From: Escherichia coli
Lineage (GTDB): Bacteria > Pseudomonadota > Gammaproteobacteria > Enterobacterales > Enterobacteriaceae
DNA length: 64,000 bases
Assembly: GCF_001677475.2 (NCBI RefSeq)
Contig: NZ_CP015229.1
Strand: one strand, 5' to 3'
Shown: piece by piece, positions 1 to 62,673 of the stretch
Layout: every line of letters starts with the position of its first letter
Position numbering within the stretch: position 1 is the stretch's first letter
Made by a program: the position numbers and the translations under genes
Notes under the pieces: model-generated
Seen by the model: the letters and a program-made list of their open reading frames with translations, nothing else
The model's database searches: none
What the model was told of the DNA's origin: nothing

Positions 1-815
1 GTGCGCAGCAGTTCGTTAATGCCGACTTTGCCGCGAGTTTTCGCGTCAACTTTCTTAACGATAACCGCACAGTAGAGGCTGTATTTGCCATCTTTCGACG
101 GCAGATTACCTGAAACAACCACAGACCCCGCCGGAACGCGGCCGTAGTGGATTTCGCCGGTTTCACGGTCGTAAATACGGGTGCTCTGACCAATGTATAC
201 GCCCATGGAAATGACGGAACCTTCTTCGACAATCACCCCTTCAACCACTTCAGAGCGCGCGCCGATGAAGCAATTATCTTCAATGATGGTTGGGTTAGCC
301 TGCAGCGGTTCCAGCACGCCGCCGATGCCCACGCCACCGGAAAGGTGGACGTTTTTACCAATCTGCGCACAAGAACCGACGGTCGCCCAGGTATCAACCA
401 TGGTGCCTTCATCAACATATGCGCCGATGTTGACGTAAGACGGCATCAGCACGGTGTTACGGGCAATGAACGCACCCTGACGTACCGCCGCTGGTGGCAC
501 AACACGGAAGCCTTCTTTCTGGAAACGTGCTTCGTCGTAATCAGCGAATTTCATCGGCACTTTATCGAAGTAGCGGCTTTCTGCCCCTTCGATCACCTGA
601 TTATCATTAATACGGAAAGAGAGCAGCACCGCTTTTTTTAACCACTGATGCGTCACCCATTGACCGTCAATTTTTTCCGCCACACGCAGTGCGCCGGAAT
701 CCAGCAGGGCGATCACCTGATTTACCGCTTCGCGGGTAACGGTGTCTGCATTGGCTGGCGTGATCTCGGCACGGCGTTCAAAAGCGGTTTCAATAATGTT
801 CTGTAACTGCTGCAT
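1..815 (-). CDS. dapD: 2,3,4,5-tetrahydropyridine-2,6-dicarboxylate N-succinyltransferase DapD; C-terminal codons run off the window start
   Basis: Reverse-strand translation from the ATG complement at 813-815 reads [31 protein letters not shown]...; not in ORF track because there is no in-window stop; the plus-strand ORF 147-641 is its antisense shadow. Confidence 0.9.
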
Positions 816-845
816 TGTTAAACTCTTTTCATATCAGTAAACACA

Positions 846-3536
<2,691 letters not shown>

Positions 3537-3579
3537 TTAAATTATCGCATTAAAAAAGCCGGCATTCGCCGGCTTCATC

Positions 3580-4374
3580 TTATTCGTCGTGCGAGATTAT
3601 CGCCGGGATGGTGTCATCCTTGCGTAGCGTCAAAATTTCGCAGCCGTTATCAGTCACCACAATAGTATGCTCGTATTGTGCAGACAAGCTGCGATCTTTG
3701 GTTTTTACCGTCCATCCATCTTTCATGGTGCGGATCTCTTTTTTACCCGCGTTGACCATTGGCTCGATGGTGAACGTCATCCCCGGTTTCAGCACGACGT
3801 TGGTTTCACGGGAGTCATAGTGCAGCACCTGCGGTTCTTCATGGAAGCCGCGACCAATACCGTGTCCACAATATTCACGAACGACGGAGAAGCCTTCTGC
3901 TTCGACAAACTTCTGAATCGCCGCACCGATTTCGCGCAGATTAATGCCAGGTTTTACCATGCCCAGCGCCAGGTACAGGCTTTCTTGCGTGATGCGGCAC
4001 AGACGTTCGCCCATGATGGTCGGCTTACCGACGATAAACATTTTCGATGTATCGCCGTGGAAACCATCTTTGATTACGGTGACATCAATGTTAACGATAT
4101 CGCCATCTTTCAGCAGCTTAGCATCGTCCGGAATACCGTGGCACACCACTTCATTAATAGAAATGCAAACGGATTTCGGATAGCCGTGATAGCCGAGGCA
4201 GGCAGAAACCGCGTGTTGTTCATTAACAATGTAATCATTACAGATGCGATCCAGCTCGCCGGTGCTGACGCCCGGTTTAACATACGGTTCGATCATCTCC
4301 AGCACTTCGGCAGCCAGTCGGCCAGCGACGCGCATTTTTTCGATATCTTCTGGGGTCTTGATTGAGATAGCCAT
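3580..4374 (-). CDS. map: Methionine aminopeptidase
   Basis: 264-aa ORF MAISIKTPEDIEKMRVAGRLAAEVLEMIEPYVKPGVSTGELDRICNDYIV...; classic E. coli Map. Confidence 0.95.
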   Translation of the reverse strand: MAISIKTPEDIEKMRVAGRLAAEVLEMIEPYVKPGVSTGELDRICNDYIVNEQHAVSACLGYHGYPKSVCISINEVVCHGIPDDAKLLKDGDIVNIDVTVIKDGFHGDTSKMFIVGKPTIMGERLCRITQESLYLALGMVKPGINLREIGAAIQKFVEAEGFSVVREYCGHGIGRGFHEEPQVLHYDSRETNVVLKPGMTFTIEPMVNAGKKEIRTMKDGWTVKTKDRSLSAQYEHTIVVTDNGCEILTLRKDDTIPAIISHDE

Positions 4375-51841: not shown

Positions 51842-51918
51842 AACACAACGCGGAGCGGTAGTTCAGTCGGTTAGAATACCTGCCTGTCACGCAGGGGGTC
51901 GCGGGTTCGAGTCCCGTC
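51842..51918 (+). tRNA. aspV: tRNA-Asp (anticodon GTC)
   Basis: Identical 77-nt sequence to aspU; located after dnaQ as in K-12. Confidence 0.95.
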
Positions 51919-51925
51919 CGTTCCG

Positions 51926-51966
51926 CCAATATTCAGAAAGCCCGAATCAGTAATGATTCGGGCTTT
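51926..51966 (+). terminator. aspV terminator
   Basis: gaaagcccgaatc-agtaat-gattcgggctttc followed by gtcgtttt. Confidence 0.65.
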
Positions 51967-56502: not shown

Positions 56503-57329
56503 GCGTCGCTTCCTTCAGCGGTGTTAAAGGTACAGGTGGACAAATCCAGCAGGCTGATATCGCCGTGACCGGTGAGCCACACCCTCTGACCCAGCGCCTG
56601 TACCAGAGTCTCTCCCGGCCCGTCCTGCCAGACCGTTTTCCGGCACAGACGCAGGGAGTCGGCAGCCTTTTCAGAGCCGCTGTAGCGGGAAAACAGCCAG
56701 GCACTGTGTGTGTCGCCATTATTCAGTGTGACGTTGACGGGTTTCCAGATCAAATCGGTCAGATGCGCAGGCCGCGGCGATTTTAGCGAACAGATTTGTG
56801 AAAACGGCAACCAGATATATACTCCGCCCGCGATGAGTTCGAGTACCGGACCGGTACGGGAGTCGCTGTCGCTAATCCAGTCAAATGCGCCGCCATTCCA
56901 CTGTCCTGCAGTATCTGTTATGGCCTCAAGTGCGCGGCTGCGGTGGGCGTCAGCTTCCTGCGCTTCACCACGGGCGTTACAGGCGAGGGCGGTCAGCAGA
57001 TCCTCCATCCAGGCGGGCGGCGGGAGAATAAAATCGGGCCGCTGTTCTCCCTGAAAGCAGGCGTGGCGGTATATCTCACAGCGGATCAGCTCGCCAAATA
57101 CCTGCGCTTCGCGGGTATAATTTGCGTCCATCCGGGCGCATAGCTGGATCTGTTGCAGTGCCCGCGACCAGTCGCCTGCCACGCACAATAACTGAAACAG
57201 GCTGTGGCGGCGGGAGGCCTGCGCCGGGGGCATCCTGACCTGCTGCTCTGCCATCTGAATGCCCTCCGCCACGGAATAATCCCGCAGCAGCGCCGACAGG
57301 GTAGCCGGTAGCTCGTTATTGTTTGTCAT
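56499..57329 (-). CDS. tagJ: T6SS accessory protein, TagJ/ImpE-like (tentative)
   Basis: 276-aa ORF in operon between fha-like gene and tssE; size and overall pattern resemble ImpE-family proteins; assignment by recollection, not alignment. Confidence 0.5.
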   Translation of the reverse strand: MTNNNELPATLSALLRDYSVAEGIQMAEQQVRMPPAQASRRHSLFQLLCVAGDWSRALQQIQLCARMDANYTREAQVFGELIRCEIYRHACFQGEQRPDFILPPPAWMEDLLTALACNARGEAQEADAHRSRALEAITDTAGQWNGGAFDWISDSDSRTGPVLELIAGGVYIWLPFSQICSLKSPRPAHLTDLIWKPVNVTLNNGDTHSAWLFSRYSGSEKAADSLRLCRKTVWQDGPGETLVQALGQRVWLTGHGDISLLDLSTCTFNTAEGSDA

Positions 57330-58230
57330 GAGATATCTCTCCGTGTTGTGCCGGGTTTATCCGATAATGGCTGTCAATGCCAATGATGCGATGCTCTTTG
57401 CGTGTCAGGTCGGGTAGAACGGTGTTATGCGCTGTTTCCGGTGCGCATTCCGGGGATAGCAGGTGCAGGATATCTGGGGGCGTCTTTTCGGCAGGCCAGG
57501 CGGTTTCCCCTTCGCCGGTGGCGTCCAGGACATCGAGAATAGCGTCAATGCTTAACCCGCCAGTGACCATATCCTGCAATGTCTCGGCTTCAGTGACCAG
57601 ATCACGCAATGAATCCAGATCCTGTGAGGAGGGCTCTTCGTTAAAGGGAAAAGGATCAGCATGGCGATGAAGATCTTGTTCAGGAGATAACAACGCCTCG
57701 CGGTATTCCTGATAAAGTCGAGTCAGGGCATTTTCTTTTTTAGCATCTTCTCCAGTGGAGGAGGCTCCATGAACAGGAATGATATCGAATGGATTTTGTG
57801 ATGTCAGATGCTGCTGCCTGAACCAATCCAGATCCAGATATTCGGTTATTGTTTCCGACATGGTGGCAGTCTGCGATGTCGTTTTTACTGCGCTCAGGTC
57901 CGGAGATGATGGATTGCCGTGCACAAGGCACCATGAAGATAACCCCCATTCTATCAGGTCGCCTTCATTCAGACGCATACGGTGATGAGGTTCCACAATC
58001 TGGTCGTTTACCGTACAGCAATATTCGGTAGACTGATTGATAATCCACCATGCTTCTTCGTGGCGGGTCAGACTGAGGGCAATCTTTACATCATCATTCA
58101 CCTCAAAAACAGGAATCCAGGGTGAGGTAACGGTGAAGATAATTTGGGTTCCTTCAGTCGCGTAAATTGTGTTATCGGCGATCCCGTGCGCCTGTATTTT
58201 TTGGAGTCCCCACGTAATATTTGGTTTCAT
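57316..58230 (-). CDS. T6SS-associated protein with N-terminal FHA-like domain (TagH/Fha-like, tentative)
   Basis: 304-aa ORF; first gene of the minus-strand operon; N-terminal roughly 100 aa end in ...TVNDQIVEPHHRMRLNEGDLIEWG, resembling the C-terminal strand pattern of FHA domains; acidic Ser/Thr-rich C-terminal half. Confidence 0.45.
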   Translation of the reverse strand: MKPNITWGLQKIQAHGIADNTIYATEGTQIIFTVTSPWIPVFEVNDDVKIALSLTRHEEAWWIINQSTEYCCTVNDQIVEPHHRMRLNEGDLIEWGLSSWCLVHGNPSSPDLSAVKTTSQTATMSETITEYLDLDWFRQQHLTSQNPFDIIPVHGASSTGEDAKKENALTRLYQEYREALLSPEQDLHRHADPFPFNEEPSSQDLDSLRDLVTEAETLQDMVTGGLSIDAILDVLDATGEGETAWPAEKTPPDILHLLSPECAPETAHNTVLPDLTRKEHRIIGIDSHYRINPAQHGEISHDKQ

Positions 58231-58562: not shown

Positions 58563-61196
58563 ATGGACACTCCTGTTTCGCGCAGTGCACTGTATGGAAA
58601 GCTAACCAAATCTTTGTTTAGATCTTTGGAATCTGCGACGACGTTCTGTAAATTACGCGCTAATCCTTATGTCGAACTGACGCATTGGTTGCATCAGTTA
58701 ATACAACAACCAGAGAATGACATTCACAATGTGCTTCGACATTATCAAATAACATCTGCTGATGTTGAGAAGGCGTTAATTCAGCAATTGAATATATTGC
58801 CTGCCGGAGCGAGTGTAATTAACGATTTTTCCCATCATATCGATCTTTCTGTTGAAAAAGCCTGGATGTTGGCAAGTATCCGCTTTGGCGATCAAAAAAT
58901 TCGTAGTGGATGGTTATTACTTGCCTGGTTAACCACGCCAGAATTGTGTCGGGTGTTAAAAAATATTTGTGCGCCATTGGCAGAGCTGCCGGTAGATGAA
59001 CTATTAGATATTCTTCCGTCTTTAATCACTTCATCTCCTGAATTAACAGAAATGCCTTATGACTGCTCGGATTTAAATTCTGCAGTACCGGGGGAAGCTA
59101 GCCAGGTCTTTGCCGGCGAATCAACCGGAAGCAAATCCGCGCTGGCGAAATACTGCCAGGACATGACTGCGCTGGCCCGTGAAGGCAATATCGATCCGGT
59201 CACCGGTCGCGAACACGAGATCCGTACTATGACGGATATTCTGCTGCGCCGTCGCCAGAACAACCCGCTACTGACCGGCGAAGCGGGAGTCGGGAAAACG
59301 GCAGTGGTGGAAGGATTCGCGCTGGCGATTGCCGGGGGGGAAGTACCGCCTTCACTGCGTAACGTGCGGTTGCTGTCACTGGATGTTGGAGCGCTGCTGG
59401 CTGGGGCGTCCATGAAGGGTGAATTTGAATCCCGCCTGAAAGCGTTGCTAGAAGAGGCCGCGCGCTCGCCGCAGCCGGTAATCCTTTTTGTTGATGAAGT
59501 TCACACGCTGGTGGGCGCTGGTGGTACATCCGGTACGGGGGATGCTGCCAACCTGCTGAAACCGGCGCTGGCGCGTGGCACCCTGCGCACCATCGGCGCA
59601 ACCACCTGGAGCGAGTACAAACGCCATATCGAAAAGGATCCGGCGCTGACTCGGCGTTTTCAGGTATTGCAGGTTGCTGAGCCGGAAGAGGTTGCGGCTG
59701 TTGAGATGGTACGCGGGTTAGTCACCACGCTTGAAAAACACCATGACGTGCTGATCCTTGATGAGGCCGTGCGCGCCGCCGTACAGCTTTCTCACCGTTA
59801 CATTCCGGCCCGGCAACTACCGGATAAGGCCATCAGCCTGCTGGATACGGCGGCGGCCCGTGTAGCGCTGTCGCTGCATACCCCGCCTGCGAGAGTCCAG
59901 TATCTGCGCCAGCAGCTCAACGCTGCCGAACTGGAGCAGGTGTTGTTATTAAAGCAGGAAAAAATGGGTATCCGCTCGGAGCGGGGCGATGTACTGACGG
60001 CGCGGATTATATCGCTTAATGCCGATCTTTCTGACACCGAAGCGCGGTGGCAGCAGGAACTGGAGTTGGTTCGCAGTTTACAGGAGCAACGCGGCGCAGC
60101 GCCTGGCGAGCGCGACGAAATCACTCTACAACAGGCAGAAACGGCATTAAGAGGCTGGCAGGGTGAAAACCCCGTCGTGTACCCGGAAGTCAGTGCAACC
60201 GTGGTGGCAGAGATTGTCTCCGACTGGACCGGTATTCCCGCCGGACGGATGGTGAAAGATGAAGCCAGTCAGATACTGGAATTGCCCACCCGTTTGGCGC
60301 AGCGTGTTACCGGGCAGATGGATGCGTTGGCGCAGATTGGCGAGCGTATCCAGACCGCGCGGGCGGGTTTAGGTGACCCGCGTAAGCCTGTGGGTGTCTT
60401 TTTGCTGGCCGGGCCGTCCGGAGTAGGCAAGACTGAGACCGCGCTGGCACTGGTAGAAGCAATCTATGGCGGTGAACAGAATCTGATCACCATCAACATG
60501 AGCGAGTATCAGGAGTCTCACACAGTCTCCACTCTGAAAGGCGCGCCGCCCGGCTACGTCGGTTATGGCGAAGGCGGCGTGTTGACGGAAGCGGTACGCC
60601 GCCATCCCTGGAGCGTGGTATTGCTGGATGAAATTGAAAAAGCCCATCACGACGTCCACGAGCTGTTCTTCCAGGTGTTTGATAAGGGGGCGATGGAAGA
60701 TGGCGAAGGTGTCCACATCGATTTCAAAAATACCACGCTGTTGTTGACGACTAACGCGGGGGCGGAACTTATCAGCCAGCTCTGTGAGGATCCGGCGCTG
60801 ATGCCCGATTCGGCAGGGTTAAAAGAGGCGTTAATGCCGGAGTTACGTAAACACTTCCCGGCGGCTTTCCTGGGGCGTGTGACGGTTATTCCTTATTTAC
60901 CGCTGGATGAGACCGCGCGTGGTGTTATTGCCCGCCTGCATCTTGGCAGATTGATGGCTCGGATGGCGGAGCAGCATGGCGTTTCACTGGTGTATGGCGA
61001 TGAACTGATTACGCATATTGTGTCGCGCTGCCCGATGCACGAGACCGGCGCTCGTTTGCTCATCGGCTATATCGAACAACATATCCTCCCACAACTGTCC
61101 CGTTATTGGTTGCAGGCGATGACAGAGAAAACGGCCATCACGCAAATCCGCATTCGTGTTGATGAGGATGAACAGATTATTTTTGAAACGGATTAA
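58563..61196 (+). CDS. clpV: T6SS AAA+ ATPase ClpV (TssH)
   Basis: 877-aa ORF with two AAA+ modules: Walker A GEAGVGKTAV and GPSGVGKTETA, Clp N-domain-like N-terminus. Confidence 0.92.
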   Translation: MDTPVSRSALYGKLTKSLFRSLESATTFCKLRANPYVELTHWLHQLIQQPENDIHNVLRHYQITSADVEKALIQQLNILPAGASVINDFSHHIDLSVEKAWMLASIRFGDQKIRSGWLLLAWLTTPELCRVLKNICAPLAELPVDELLDILPSLITSSPELTEMPYDCSDLNSAVPGEASQVFAGESTGSKSALAKYCQDMTALAREGNIDPVTGREHEIRTMTDILLRRRQNNPLLTGEAGVGKTAVVEGFALAIAGGEVPPSLRNVRLLSLDVGALLAGASMKGEFESRLKALLEEAARSPQPVILFVDEVHTLVGAGGTSGTGDAANLLKPALARGTLRTIGATTWSEYKRHIEKDPALTRRFQVLQVAEPEEVAAVEMVRGLVTTLEKHHDVLILDEAVRAAVQLSHRYIPARQLPDKAISLLDTAAARVALSLHTPPARVQYLRQQLNAAELEQVLLLKQEKMGIRSERGDVLTARIISLNADLSDTEARWQQELELVRSLQEQRGAAPGERDEITLQQAETALRGWQGENPVVYPEVSATVVAEIVSDWTGIPAGRMVKDEASQILELPTRLAQRVTGQMDALAQIGERIQTARAGLGDPRKPVGVFLLAGPSGVGKTETALALVEAIYGGEQNLITINMSEYQESHTVSTLKGAPPGYVGYGEGGVLTEAVRRHPWSVVLLDEIEKAHHDVHELFFQVFDKGAMEDGEGVHIDFKNTTLLLTTNAGAELISQLCEDPALMPDSAGLKEALMPELRKHFPAAFLGRVTVIPYLPLDETARGVIARLHLGRLMARMAEQHGVSLVYGDELITHIVSRCPMHETGARLLIGYIEQHILPQLSRYWLQAMTEKTAITQIRIRVDEDEQIIFETD

Positions 61197-61386
61197 TGGA
61201 GCATCCTTATGGCAAAAGAATTAAGTGGCGCACTGTGGTTCAGTCGCTTTCCTGGAAGTTCTTCCACTAATGATTTGCAGGGGACTTTTCGTGCATCGGT
61301 AGATAATTTTTTGCGCGCGCATTGGTAATGCGCGTGCAAGGGTCAGTATCTCTGCAACATATCGCCCTCCCGCCAGAGCATATCTC

Positions 61387-61773
61387 ATGCACTGGTCATG
61401 GTTGATTGCTCATGAAATCGTTCAGGCAAAAAACGTCCCGGCGATGGAGGGGGTGGATATTGAGTGGGTTCACCCGACTGAGCAAGCCTCGCTTGAAGCG
61501 GCGCAGGCTATGGTTACGGCCTATGGTATTAATAATCTGAATGTCGCGCCTGCACTGAGCTCCAACCATACACGCGGTACTGCGATAGATATGAATATCA
61601 GTTGGAGCGGAACATTAACAATTGCGGGGAGCAATGGTCAGAATGTTGCAATTAATACACTACCTCGAACCGGAATGAATGCCCAGCTTCAGGCGGTAGG
61701 TCTGGGTTACGGCGTCAGAAAATTTGTTGGCGGCAATACAGATATACCTCACTGGTCAATTGATGGACATTAA
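61387..61773 (+). CDS. Candidate T6SS effector: small zinc metallopeptidase of the VanY/peptidase M15 (LAS) type, predicted peptidoglycan peptidase
   Basis: 128-aa ORF, no signal peptide, no Cys; exact VanY-type motif S59-N-H61-T-R-G64-T-A66-I-D68 (SxHxxGxAxD) at nt 61561-61590 and C-terminal His in IPHWSIDGH; located between clpV and tssB. Confidence 0.5.
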   Translation: MHWSWLIAHEIVQAKNVPAMEGVDIEWVHPTEQASLEAAQAMVTAYGINNLNVAPALSSNHTRGTAIDMNISWSGTLTIAGSNGQNVAINTLPRTGMNAQLQAVGLGYGVRKFVGGNTDIPHWSIDGH

Positions 61774-61775
61774 GT

Positions 61776-62066
61776 ATGACATTTCGTTATCCGATGTTGT
61801 TGACATTCCTGTTAATGATGTTCGCTTTCTGTGTTCAGGGGGAACCGCCTTTACCACAGGATGTGCAGCATTTTCTGAGTAATGCGGAAATGTGCCAGCA
61901 TCTTGCTGGTGAATGGGACAGTTCTTTACCAAAGAAGGATAAAAGAGACATCGAAAAGGGGGTTGATACCTGGTGTCCTCCGGCGAAGAAATCACTCCCT
62001 GTGCTGCGGGAAAAGTACAAAGAAAACAAAGAGATTATAAAAATACTCTCTGCGTATGATTTTTAA
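61776..62066 (+). CDS. Candidate periplasmic immunity protein for the upstream peptidase
   Basis: 96-aa ORF starting 2 nt after the peptidase stop; N-terminal Sec-type signal peptide MTFRYPMLLTFLLMMFAFCVQG; two Cys in mature part; Lys/Glu-rich C-terminus. Confidence 0.45.
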   Translation: MTFRYPMLLTFLLMMFAFCVQGEPPLPQDVQHFLSNAEMCQHLAGEWDSSLPKKDKRDIEKGVDTWCPPAKKSLPVLREKYKENKEIIKILSAYDF

Positions 62067-62127: not shown

Positions 62128-62673
62128 ATGGCTATCAACAACAGCGCGCAGAAGTTTATTGCCCGCAACCGCGCGCCCCGCGTGCAGATTGAGTATGACG
62201 TTGAGATTTACGGCTCCGAGAAAAAAATCGAACTGCCGTTTGTCATGGCGGTGCTGGCCGATCTGGCTGGTAAACCACGCGAAGAGCTGCCACCGGTCAC
62301 CGATCGTAAATTCCTTGATATTGATATCGATAACTTCAACGAGCGGATGAAAGCCATTGCGCCGCGCGTGGCGTTTGCTGTCCCCAATACGCTGACGGGC
62401 GAAGGGCAGTTAATGGTCGATATCACGCTGGAGAATATGGACGATTTTTCGCCTGCGCAGATTGCCCGTAAGGTGGATGCCCTGAACCAGCTGCTGGAAG
62501 CGCGTACTCAGCTTGCCAACCTACAAACGTATATGGATGGTAAAGCGGGAGCAGAAAATCTTATCAACAAACTATTACAAGACCCTACGTTACTGAAAGC
62601 TCTGGCTAGTGCGCCAAAACCTGTCGCTCAACAGGAAAGTGTCTTATCAGGTGAAACGGGAACAGCAGACTAA
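62128..62673 (+). CDS. tssB: T6SS contractile sheath small subunit TssB (VipA)
   Basis: 181-aa ORF MAINNSAQKFIARNRAPRVQIEYDVEIYGSEKKIELPFVMAVLADLAGKP..., classic VipA pattern. Confidence 0.9.
   Translation: MAINNSAQKFIARNRAPRVQIEYDVEIYGSEKKIELPFVMAVLADLAGKPREELPPVTDRKFLDIDIDNFNERMKAIAPRVAFAVPNTLTGEGQLMVDITLENMDDFSPAQIARKVDALNQLLEARTQLANLQTYMDGKAGAENLINKLLQDPTLLKALASAPKPVAQQESVLSGETGTAD

Follow-up and report, generated by a model that had tools for sequence, protein, structure and literature searches.

The DNA analysed here is a 64,000-nucleotide (nt) stretch of Escherichia coli, hereafter the window, in which positions are counted from the first letter. The element under study lies between clpV/tssH, the gene of the ATPase of a type VI secretion system (T6SS), and an open reading frame (ORF) of 128 amino acids (aa). 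According to both the ORF listing and direct reading, a gap of 190 nt (61197-61386) separates the end of clpV/tssH at 61196 from the 128-aa ORF, whose first position is 61387; a 39-codon ORF begins in this gap. A first-pass annotation had left two explanations side by side, namely that the 39 codons encode an independent small protein or adaptor next to a peptidase starting at 61387, or that a frameshift had split the N-terminus off an effector gene. Our analysis favours the latter: with high confidence, we read 61209-61773 as a pseudogene, split by one inserted A (+A), whose intact form would encode an antibacterial effector of 187 aa and which belongs to the T6SS-2 cluster located next to tRNA-Asp in E. 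coli. The features on which this reading is built are the following.

58563-61196, plus strand: clpV/tssH, T6SS ATPase, 877 aa, intact; an identical protein is named TssH in public records, with AAA and ClpB domains.
61198-61201, plus strand: GGAG ribosome-binding site of the original, putative effector gene, by direct reading.
61209-61773, plus strand: whole putative effector pseudogene, 565 nt here and 564 nt (187 aa) when intact; a single coding sequence (CDS) in other E. coli.
61209-61328, plus strand: 39-codon remnant, made of 37 native N-terminal residues, then out-of-frame His-Trp and a stop; from the ORF list and the alignment.
61321, plus strand: inserted A (+1 frameshift), the sole gap column against two intact alleles.
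61311-61339, unstranded: inverted repeat TTGCGCGCGCATT-GGT-AATGCGCGTGCAA, from a repeat finder and DNA folding.
61387-61773, plus strand: 128-codon remnant, corresponding to residues 60-187 of the putative effector; hypothetical protein ANO87373.1 / WP_065226136.1, without a ribosome-binding site.
61588-61590, plus strand: GAT codon for D127, predicted zinc ligand of an H-x6-D motif; AAT (Asn) in most E. coli alleles.
61776-62066, plus strand: intact putative immunity gene, whose 96-aa product has a signal peptide at its N-terminus; from the ORF list.

The coordinates and sequence features reported by the first-pass annotation (the gap, the ATG preceded by GGAG, the stops and an open frame without a start codon) were all correct. 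The GGAG lies 7 nt 5' of ATG 61209, and strains A34 and 2012C-4221, in which the gene is intact, have this sequence ahead of it too. From this ATG, the sequence of the 39-codon ORF is MAKELSGALWFSRFPGSSSTNDLQGTFRASVDNFLRAHW, with its stop at 61326-61328. Going upstream from the 128-aa ORF, its frame stays open as far as a TAG at 61300-61302, a stretch devoid of ATG, GTG or TTG, and the in-frame sequence ahead of its Met is IIFCARIGNARARVSISATYRPPARAYL. ORFs of about 39 codons are common by chance, dozens being listed nearby in the ORF list of the window, and the size of this one would by itself be put down to chance; it counts as real because it is homologous to the N-terminus of the 187-aa protein.

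The locus was searched for with a 701-nt query around the site in 5,426 complete RefSeq E. coli genomes and was found in 115 of them. Most of the query is matched in 107 of the 115, and each such match, among those listed, covers 700 nt of genome. The annotations of A34 and 2012C-4221 have one CDS of 564 nt here, running from the equivalent of 61209 to the equivalent of 61773. Alignment of the window with these two intact alleles contains a single gap column, the window reading GCGCGCGC-A-TTGG where they read GCGCGCGC-TTGG. Deletion of A61321 in silico restores a 187-aa ORF, which differs from the 2012C-4221 protein by V11F, M82V and M107I only. Because a single +A separates the window from the intact ORF, the 39-aa product amounts to 37 native residues followed by His-Trp; these 37 residues are the N-terminus of the conserved 187-aa protein save for V11F, a change private to the window's lineage. 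Likewise, the in-frame codons from 61322 up to the start of the 128-aa ORF encode residues 38-59, so that IIFCARIGNARARVSISATYRPPARAYL decodes as the out-of-frame IIFCAR, then I in place of L38, then G39-L59. The suggestion that a frameshift had split off the N-terminus is borne out in that related E. coli carry at this site one longer ORF of 564 nt and 187 aa.

Conservation at the protein level runs across the break as well. A search with the restored protein returned full-length relatives of 186-216 aa, at 97-100% query coverage, from Enterobacteriaceae, Pectobacterium, Erwiniaceae, Ralstonia, Herbaspirillum and other Burkholderiales. In an alignment of 33 homologues ranging from Enterobacteriaceae to Burkholderiales, conservation is continuous through the break, with S6, W10, F27, F34 and R52, all upstream of M60, being invariant, and the conserved segment ISATxRPPERAYLMHWSW straddles what was listed as the start of the 128-aa ORF. 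The 39-aa peptide is thus conserved across distant genera, as part of the 187-aa protein. A profile search over 1.84 billion representative sequences, in which the family was counted as representatives at 50% identity, gave 1,138 representatives at E <= 0.001 and 920 at E <= 1e-10; among the 150 matches listed, all run to the end of the profile on its C-terminal side, and only one begins beyond its first 22 positions. Betaproteobacterial homologues carry, in addition, an N-terminal extension of 17-30 aa (TPxxDQTPAVV).

In the strain of the window, the extra A at 61321 shifts the frame past residue 37, translation from the native ribosome-binding site stops at 61326-61328 after 39 codons, and the other 150 codons are out of frame. 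The putative toxin is therefore lost; the immunity gene is intact, and so are the apparatus genes that adjoin it in the window.

As to what the intact gene encodes, the AlphaFold2 model of the 187-aa protein reached a mean predicted local distance difference test (pLDDT) score of 94.8 and a predicted template modelling (pTM) score of 0.84, and the top 18 Foldseek matches were all M15/LAS enzymes (Ply500, VanY, LdcB, LysB4, VanXY, VanX, ChiX and LysECD7 among the names returned), the best being Ply500; the fold searches were in agreement with one another. The protein accordingly shows in its model the Hedgehog/DD-peptidase fold of the LAS/M15 enzymes. Residues H120 and H181 and the motif D178-x-x-H181 are invariant in the 33-sequence alignment, D127 is present in all of these sequences except the E. 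coli N127 allele, and the motif as aligned reads SSNHTRGTAID…PHWS. To judge by these motifs, H120-x6-D127 and D178-x-x-H181 fit the zinc ligands and the catalytic base of the LAS superfamily, and D178 and the others would correspond, by motif, to residues of Ply500-type enzymes. In the proposed M15-like fold, H120, D127 and H181 would serve as ligands and D178 as the base, and R52 is conserved; the predicted ligands and base all lie in the 128-codon remnant. Taken together, fold, motif and gene context point to an LAS (M15-like) zinc peptidoglycan peptidase.

Within the model, residues 1-59 comprise a helix (25-40), a strand (44-49) and the start of a further helix (54-67), so that the 39-aa stretch and the 22 residues following it supply a helix and a strand of the catalytic domain. 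The 128-codon ORF begins inside a helix of the domain and lacks R52, the start of that helix, one helix before it and one strand of the core. Initiation at M60 would probably give an inactive product, because helix 25-40, strand 44-49, the start of helix 54-67 and R52 would be missing from that product.

The designation of the downstream gene as a peptidase or effector, made in the first-pass annotation, therefore stands as far as fold, motif and gene context go, and finds no counterpart among curated models: when the two remnants, the restored protein and the immunity protein were compared with Pfam and NCBIfam, no model exceeded its threshold, the NCBIfam D-Ala-D-Ala dipeptidase model reaching 14 bits against a cut-off of 176. 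The Prokaryotic Genome Annotation Pipeline (PGAP) names the intact protein "peptidoglycan-binding domain-containing protein" or "hypothetical protein". A literature search found no described T6SS effector with this fold, the sole T6SS-linked LAS enzyme that it returned being TagX, and the effector surveys and the polymorphic-toxin survey that were consulted make no mention of this domain.

The genomic context supports a role in T6SS-mediated antagonism. The genes of the window are ordered gloB, a methyltransferase gene, rnhA, dnaQ, tRNA-Asp, tssA, tssG, tssF, tssE, an ImpE-family gene and a 304-aa gene on the minus strand, followed on the plus strand by clpV, the broken putative effector gene, the 96-aa gene, tssB and tssC. 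A T6SS-2 island at aspV has been described for E. coli (bioRxiv 10.1101/2024.03.05.583533), and the cluster in the window is that island. The intact 187-aa protein has no signal peptide, its N-terminus (MAKELSGALWVSRFPGSSSTNDLQ) contains no hydrophobic segment, and the whole protein is a single globular domain in the model. The 96-aa gene, which does encode a signal peptide, begins 2 nt past the stop of the 187-aa reading frame and is 96 aa long in 24 out of 24 E. coli loci where it could be read, including those in which the putative effector is broken. In Pectobacterium, a homologue of the effector located outside any T6SS cluster is followed by a 96-aa gene whose product is 48% identical to that of the window (E 4e-29) and has a lipoprotein-type signal; Intestinirhabdus harbors a similar orphan pair of effector and partner. 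In Ralstonia, the effector homologue is immediately preceded by two PAAR genes and has the gene of a signal-peptide protein downstream, and one homologue gives a weak, partial match to the PAAR motif at its N-terminus.

Thus, the gene lies between tssH and tssB or is linked to PAAR, and the adjacent gene for a signal-peptide protein is retained with it as a pair. We infer that the 187-aa and 96-aa genes form an antibacterial effector-immunity pair. The intact protein would be cytoplasmic and be fired by the T6SS into neighbouring bacteria, where the delivered enzyme would cut peptide stems or cross-links of peptidoglycan, and the product of 61776-62066 would be a periplasmic 96-aa immunity protein that shields the producer and its kin. 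Several side observations concern the partners. Cysteines C40 and C67 of the putative immunity protein are also found in its Pectobacterium counterpart, and a disulfide is possible. A weak match of the immunity protein to the NCBIfam thiol-disulfide oxidoreductase model StoA_CxxC (28.6 bits against a cut-off of 210) was set aside as probably spurious. In Ralstonia flaminis (locus L026, 7105-9138), the second PAAR gene overlaps the start of the effector homologue by 53 nt. The downstream signal-peptide protein of Ralstonia is 173-194 aa long, not 96 aa, and may therefore belong to a different immunity family.

The domain is also found in larger proteins. We scanned ten longer members of the family, and the domain was C-terminal in all ten. 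Two of them combine it with eCIS_core, a domain of extracellular contractile injection systems (eCIS), and a phage lysozyme or pesticin domain; others carry GH19, subtilase, or trypsin plus lipase, with one having no Pfam match in its extra region (members with fusions: P0211, P0229, P0244, P0200, P0270 and P0311). Such fusion partners are typical of toxin or lytic cassettes, and the position of the domain as a C-terminal module of long eCIS_core, GH19, subtilase and trypsin/lipase proteins suggests a cassette used beyond the T6SS. The 187-aa gene would represent an undescribed family of LAS-type effectors, with its own immunity family.

A different function was weighed for the 187-aa protein, that of a peptidoglycan hydrolase with a housekeeping task, which would open the way for the T6SS through the wall of the producer itself, in the manner of TagX of Acinetobacter. 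TagX is an LAS/VanY-type, Ply500-like L,D-endopeptidase from T6SS clusters (PMC5061870), and the 187-aa gene too is found inside a T6SS core cluster and has Ply500 as its best structural match. On the other side, TagX has two predicted transmembrane (TM) segments where the 187-aa protein has neither a transmembrane nor a signal segment; the gene, with 115 carriers among the 5,426 complete E. coli genomes, is not a core component and is often inactivated beside intact tssH, tssB and tssC; it travels as a two-gene module outside T6SS clusters and adjoins PAAR genes as well; and its domain is fused to eCIS toxin markers. With no anchor, a presence in 2% of genomes and frequent breakage, we consider the housekeeping function unlikely, and we retain that of an antibacterial effector.

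The +A that splits the gene is found in at least 14 independent assemblies. Apart from the window and an isolate assembly identical to it over 2,972 nt (L003), the insertion was observed in 11 further loci (L005-L015), drawn from metagenomes, draft genomes of isolates and assemblies built from public sequencing runs, and the 39-aa product ending in …FLRAHW occurs in public collections in four single-nucleotide polymorphism (SNP) backgrounds. With a 212-nt query, +A was detected in none of the 115 complete E. coli genomes from RefSeq that contain the locus; the best identity was 99.1%, which corresponds to the gap plus one SNP, and all 60 of the 60 matches listed span 211 nt.

The sequence around A61321 suggests how it arose. 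The arms of the inverted repeat, at 61311-61323 (TTGCGCGCGCATT) and 61327-61339 (AATGCGCGTGCAA), are 13 nt long, 92% complementary and separated by a 3-nt loop; the repeat finder did not report the same pair in the intact allele. When folded as single-stranded DNA, the intact allele forms a 10-bp stem with an 8-nt loop (-11.8 kcal/mol); in the +A allele the stem measures 13 bp and the loop 3 nt (-15.1 kcal/mol, z -4.5). A61321 stands opposite T61329, the T of the other arm that is unpaired in the intact allele, and once this pair is made the next two T-A pairs can also form. In quasipalindrome-associated template-switch mutations, a templated change perfects an imperfect palindrome, and hotspots of this kind are known in E. 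coli (PMC7202029). The ancestral allele here has the imperfect repeat, and the inserted base is the one templated by the other arm. The +A would arise by a replication template switch within the quasipalindrome, which is its most likely origin. Two other roles for the repeat were discarded: an intrinsic terminator, as no T-run lies 3' of the hairpin, and a reversible phase-variation switch, because reversion is untemplated once the repeat is perfect at 61321.

The haplotypes on which the insertion sits were compared over a narrow region, the sequence upstream in 2012C-4221 being divergent. Twelve of the 14 +A sequences, the window included, lie on one haplotype, and L015 carries that haplotype in mosaic form. 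The remaining sequence, a metagenome scaffold (L009) with the A34/RM8082 haplotype, equals the intact RM8082 allele at 21 out of 21 markers over 1.8 kb, except for the +A; the markers nearest to the insertion in this comparison are 61268 (53 nt upstream) and 61588 (267 nt downstream). These haplotype data are consistent with a hotspot for +A, and equally with short-tract recombination.

Further, independent lesions were found among the E. coli copies. These include (i) an extra T in the T6 run 10 nt upstream of the +A site (window equivalent 61307-61312), giving a product …DNFFARAW* in L016-L018; (ii) a 15-nt in-frame deletion (61437-61451) in VCSW7 (H33, fetched as L020), the VCSW5 match (H28) also being short at 685 nt for the 701-nt query; (iii) an internal deletion that leaves a 67-aa ORF (L028, L029), the same 67-aa protein occurring in LHM10-1 and XJ5.2, with IS1 after the remnant in XJ5.2 and a similar 67-aa product in Escherichia sp. 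E1130; and (iv) H181Y together with W64L in PapRG-06-5 (L024). Eight genomes matched the 701-nt query only partially, and both examples that were fetched have internal deletions. Allele-specific queries of 31 nt revealed D127N (AAT) in 90 of the 115 complete genomes and the GAT codon in 17, the remaining 8 matching neither query; the codon equivalent to 61588-61590 was also examined in L001, L009, L016, L017 and L021-L025. Since distant homologues all have Asp at a position where 90 out of 115 E. coli genomes encode Asn, most of the E. coli copies that seem intact may lack catalytic activity or serve a different purpose. Alleles that retain D127 are common in larger public collections, P0020 being present on 576 contigs and P0021 on 359.

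These patterns may be read as a weapon lost repeatedly in E. coli while the shield is retained. More broadly, they would fit an undescribed, widespread family of toxin domains, LAS-type peptidases of the cell wall with at least 1,138 representatives at 50% identity, that would be delivered by the T6SS with PAAR linkage and by eCIS, and whose E. coli gene would have a quasipalindromic frameshift hotspot that, along with D127N, homopolymer slippage and repeat-mediated deletions, would repeatedly disarm the toxin with immunity being kept; we offer this wider proposal tentatively, as one that has somewhat less than an even chance of being right in all its parts. As a separate observation, tssH itself is damaged in some strains whose 187-codon ORF is undisrupted: in 2012C-4221 (L002 1-1547) it is cut to a 493-aa 'AAA family ATPase' and the sequence upstream is divergent, and in 05-3629 and RM8082 (L021 and L022, 1-1488) it is annotated as frameshifted.

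The two-gene arrangement entertained by the first-pass annotation, in which a small protein or adaptor of 39 aa would stand beside a peptidase of 128 aa with its start at 61387, has to be set against these data. Both ORFs are listed by gene callers and in GenBank (ANO87373.1), the layout recurs in at least 14 assemblies and the 39-codon ORF keeps a good ribosome-binding site. The layout is limited, though, to sequences with the +A, an insertion that none of the 115 complete genomes with the locus contains, and distant homologues all have one ORF across the break; the final two codons of the 39-aa ORF are out-of-frame read-through, and the 128-aa ORF has no ribosome-binding site and is missing a core strand as well as the conserved R52. 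In addition, +A alleles bear further amino-acid changes (R28C, G25E, S46C and M82G), as expected for a gene released from selection. As the 39 aa and the next 22 residues are conserved with the rest as one protein, and homologues are conserved from end to end across the break, two independent genes are to all practical purposes ruled out, and we grant them a very small probability.

Similarly slight is the chance that the frameshift is bypassed by the ribosome, with a +1 slip of tRNA-Phe at TTT-TTG (61308-61313) yielding a full-length protein with CARI for LRAL, from a gene functional at a low level or regulated. The T6 run does lie between the second-frame stop at 61300-61302 and the first-frame stop at 61326-61328, and a GC-rich hairpin follows 3' of it. 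Nevertheless, outside the +A lineage the two-frame layout lacks the conservation characteristic of programmed frameshifting, for distant homologues and all 115 complete E. coli loci are single-frame or deleted; no known stimulator of +1 slippage is present, an A-site rare codon or stop codon for instance; the slipped product would change four residues of a conserved helix; and the proposal is purely conjectural. Least probable of all is an error of sequencing or assembly in a genome whose 187-codon gene is in truth intact, a reading that could appeal to the commonness of single-base indels among errors and to the absence of the window's genome from the complete RefSeq genomes searched (best match there 99.4% identical), and that we rejected since A61321 lies outside any homopolymer run, an independent isolate assembly (NJSK01000030.1) is identical to the window over 2,972 nt with the +A included, many short-read assemblies of unrelated samples contain the identical insertion, and the other long genes of the window are intact.

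Some points weigh against our reading of a disrupted LAS-type effector with a templated, possibly recurrent insertion. At the level of the mutation, the one apparent recurrence of +A comes from a single metagenome scaffold (L009), and a conversion tract of at most 320 bp, between 61268 and 61588, would explain it equally well, which is possible because the locus is mosaic (L015, L019 and L020); a Joint Genome Institute (JGI) metagenome scan for +A alleles, with degenerate flanking markers, brought up no further copy. At the level of the protein, Pfam Peptidase_M15_4 (PF13539) scored 14.6-15.5 bits against a cut-off of 25, VanY (PF02557) was matched at E 0.084 in 2 of the 33 members, and the profile gave chance matches only when compared with PDB sequences, so that no solved structure was reached by sequence. 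Low-level reinitiation at 61387, or ribosomal slippage, may also leave some product. Finally, we infer all three of enzymatic activity, T6SS-dependent export and immunity.

The remaining features of the window place the pseudogene within its island.

51852-51928, plus strand: tRNA-Asp (GTC), the left edge of the T6SS island, from ARAGORN.
57316-58230, minus strand: 304-aa ORF between the ImpE-family gene and clpV, among the T6SS genes, for which the Pfam scan returned no match at E <= 0.001.
62128-62673, plus strand: tssB, for the small sheath subunit of the T6SS; PF05591 (T6SS_VipA) was matched on L003, a locus identical to this one, and the gene is annotated tssB in A34 and 2012C-4221.

Exact GenBank matches of proteins of the window are ANO87372-ANO87374. 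Away from the island, the segment 38100-43870 (about 5.7 kb) contains one single ORF of at least 120 aa, the rest of the window being gene-dense, and could hold non-coding RNA genes such as an rRNA operon.

A frameshift pseudogene is in itself ordinary, with nothing surprising in kind; the interest of this one, which is modest, lies in the undescribed family of putative effectors and in a lesion that bears the marks of a quasipalindrome hotspot. In annotations, the "hypothetical proteins" of 39 aa and 128 aa (the latter ANO87373.1 / WP_065226136.1) should be united in a single entry marked as a frameshifted pseudogene. When intact, the gene is a candidate for a new, LAS/M15-like class of T6SS effector directed at peptidoglycan, and its partner for a new immunity family, neither of which is covered by a curated model. 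That most E. coli copies look disarmed with immunity retained fits the view that immunity outlasts the weapon, and the +A site offers a natural, directly testable example of a templated quasipalindrome frameshift.

Known systems provide a measure for each of these proposals. Template-switch hotspots at quasipalindromes in E. coli have reportedly been studied by the Lovett laboratory. Like the hotspots described (PMC7202029), the present site combines an imperfect ancestral repeat, a templated change that perfects it and the same change on two haplotypes; unlike them, the +A is a natural polymorphism and not a measured hotspot, and its possible recurrence is not told apart from short-tract recombination.

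Among effectors, the comparison is with Tae4-Tai4, Tlde1-Tldi1 and Ssp-Rap. Similar to these pairs, the 187-aa protein is a small, predicted cytoplasmic enzyme without a signal peptide, encoded within or beside T6SS core genes and directly followed by the gene of a small predicted periplasmic protein, with the cell wall as its predicted target. It differs in its fold, which is that of an LAS/M15-like zinc peptidase and not of a papain-like amidase or an L,D-transpeptidase, and in that the copy in the window is a pseudogene, of a protein whose secretion, toxicity and neutralisation by the partner are predicted. Tae4-Tai4, Tlde1-Tldi1 (Salmonella pathogenicity island 6, SPI-6) and Ssp-Rap (Serratia) have been described as peptidoglycan-degrading effector-immunity pairs in i3-type clusters (PMC12994826).

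With the LAS enzymes (MEROPS M15, clan MD), a set that includes the phage endolysins Ply500, LysB4 and T5 EndoT5 as well as VanX, VanY, VanXY, LdcB and ChiX, the 187-aa protein has in common the motifs H-x6-D and D-x-x-H with their invariant residues. The family nevertheless shares only 9-17% sequence identity with them, stays below the thresholds of the M15_4 and VanY models, and has an extra conserved N-terminal segment (residues 1-40). TagX, for its part, is membrane-anchored, with its two predicted TM segments, and is needed for Hcp secretion; its D287N mutant served as the comparison enzyme in a peptidoglycan digestion assay, and conserved C-terminal residues are required for its activity (PMC5061870). 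The 187-aa protein resembles TagX in being of the LAS type, Ply500-like and encoded in a T6SS cluster, and is distinguished from this membrane-anchored enzyme, which has no immunity partner, in being soluble, accessory, paired with a signal-peptide protein and frequently lost.

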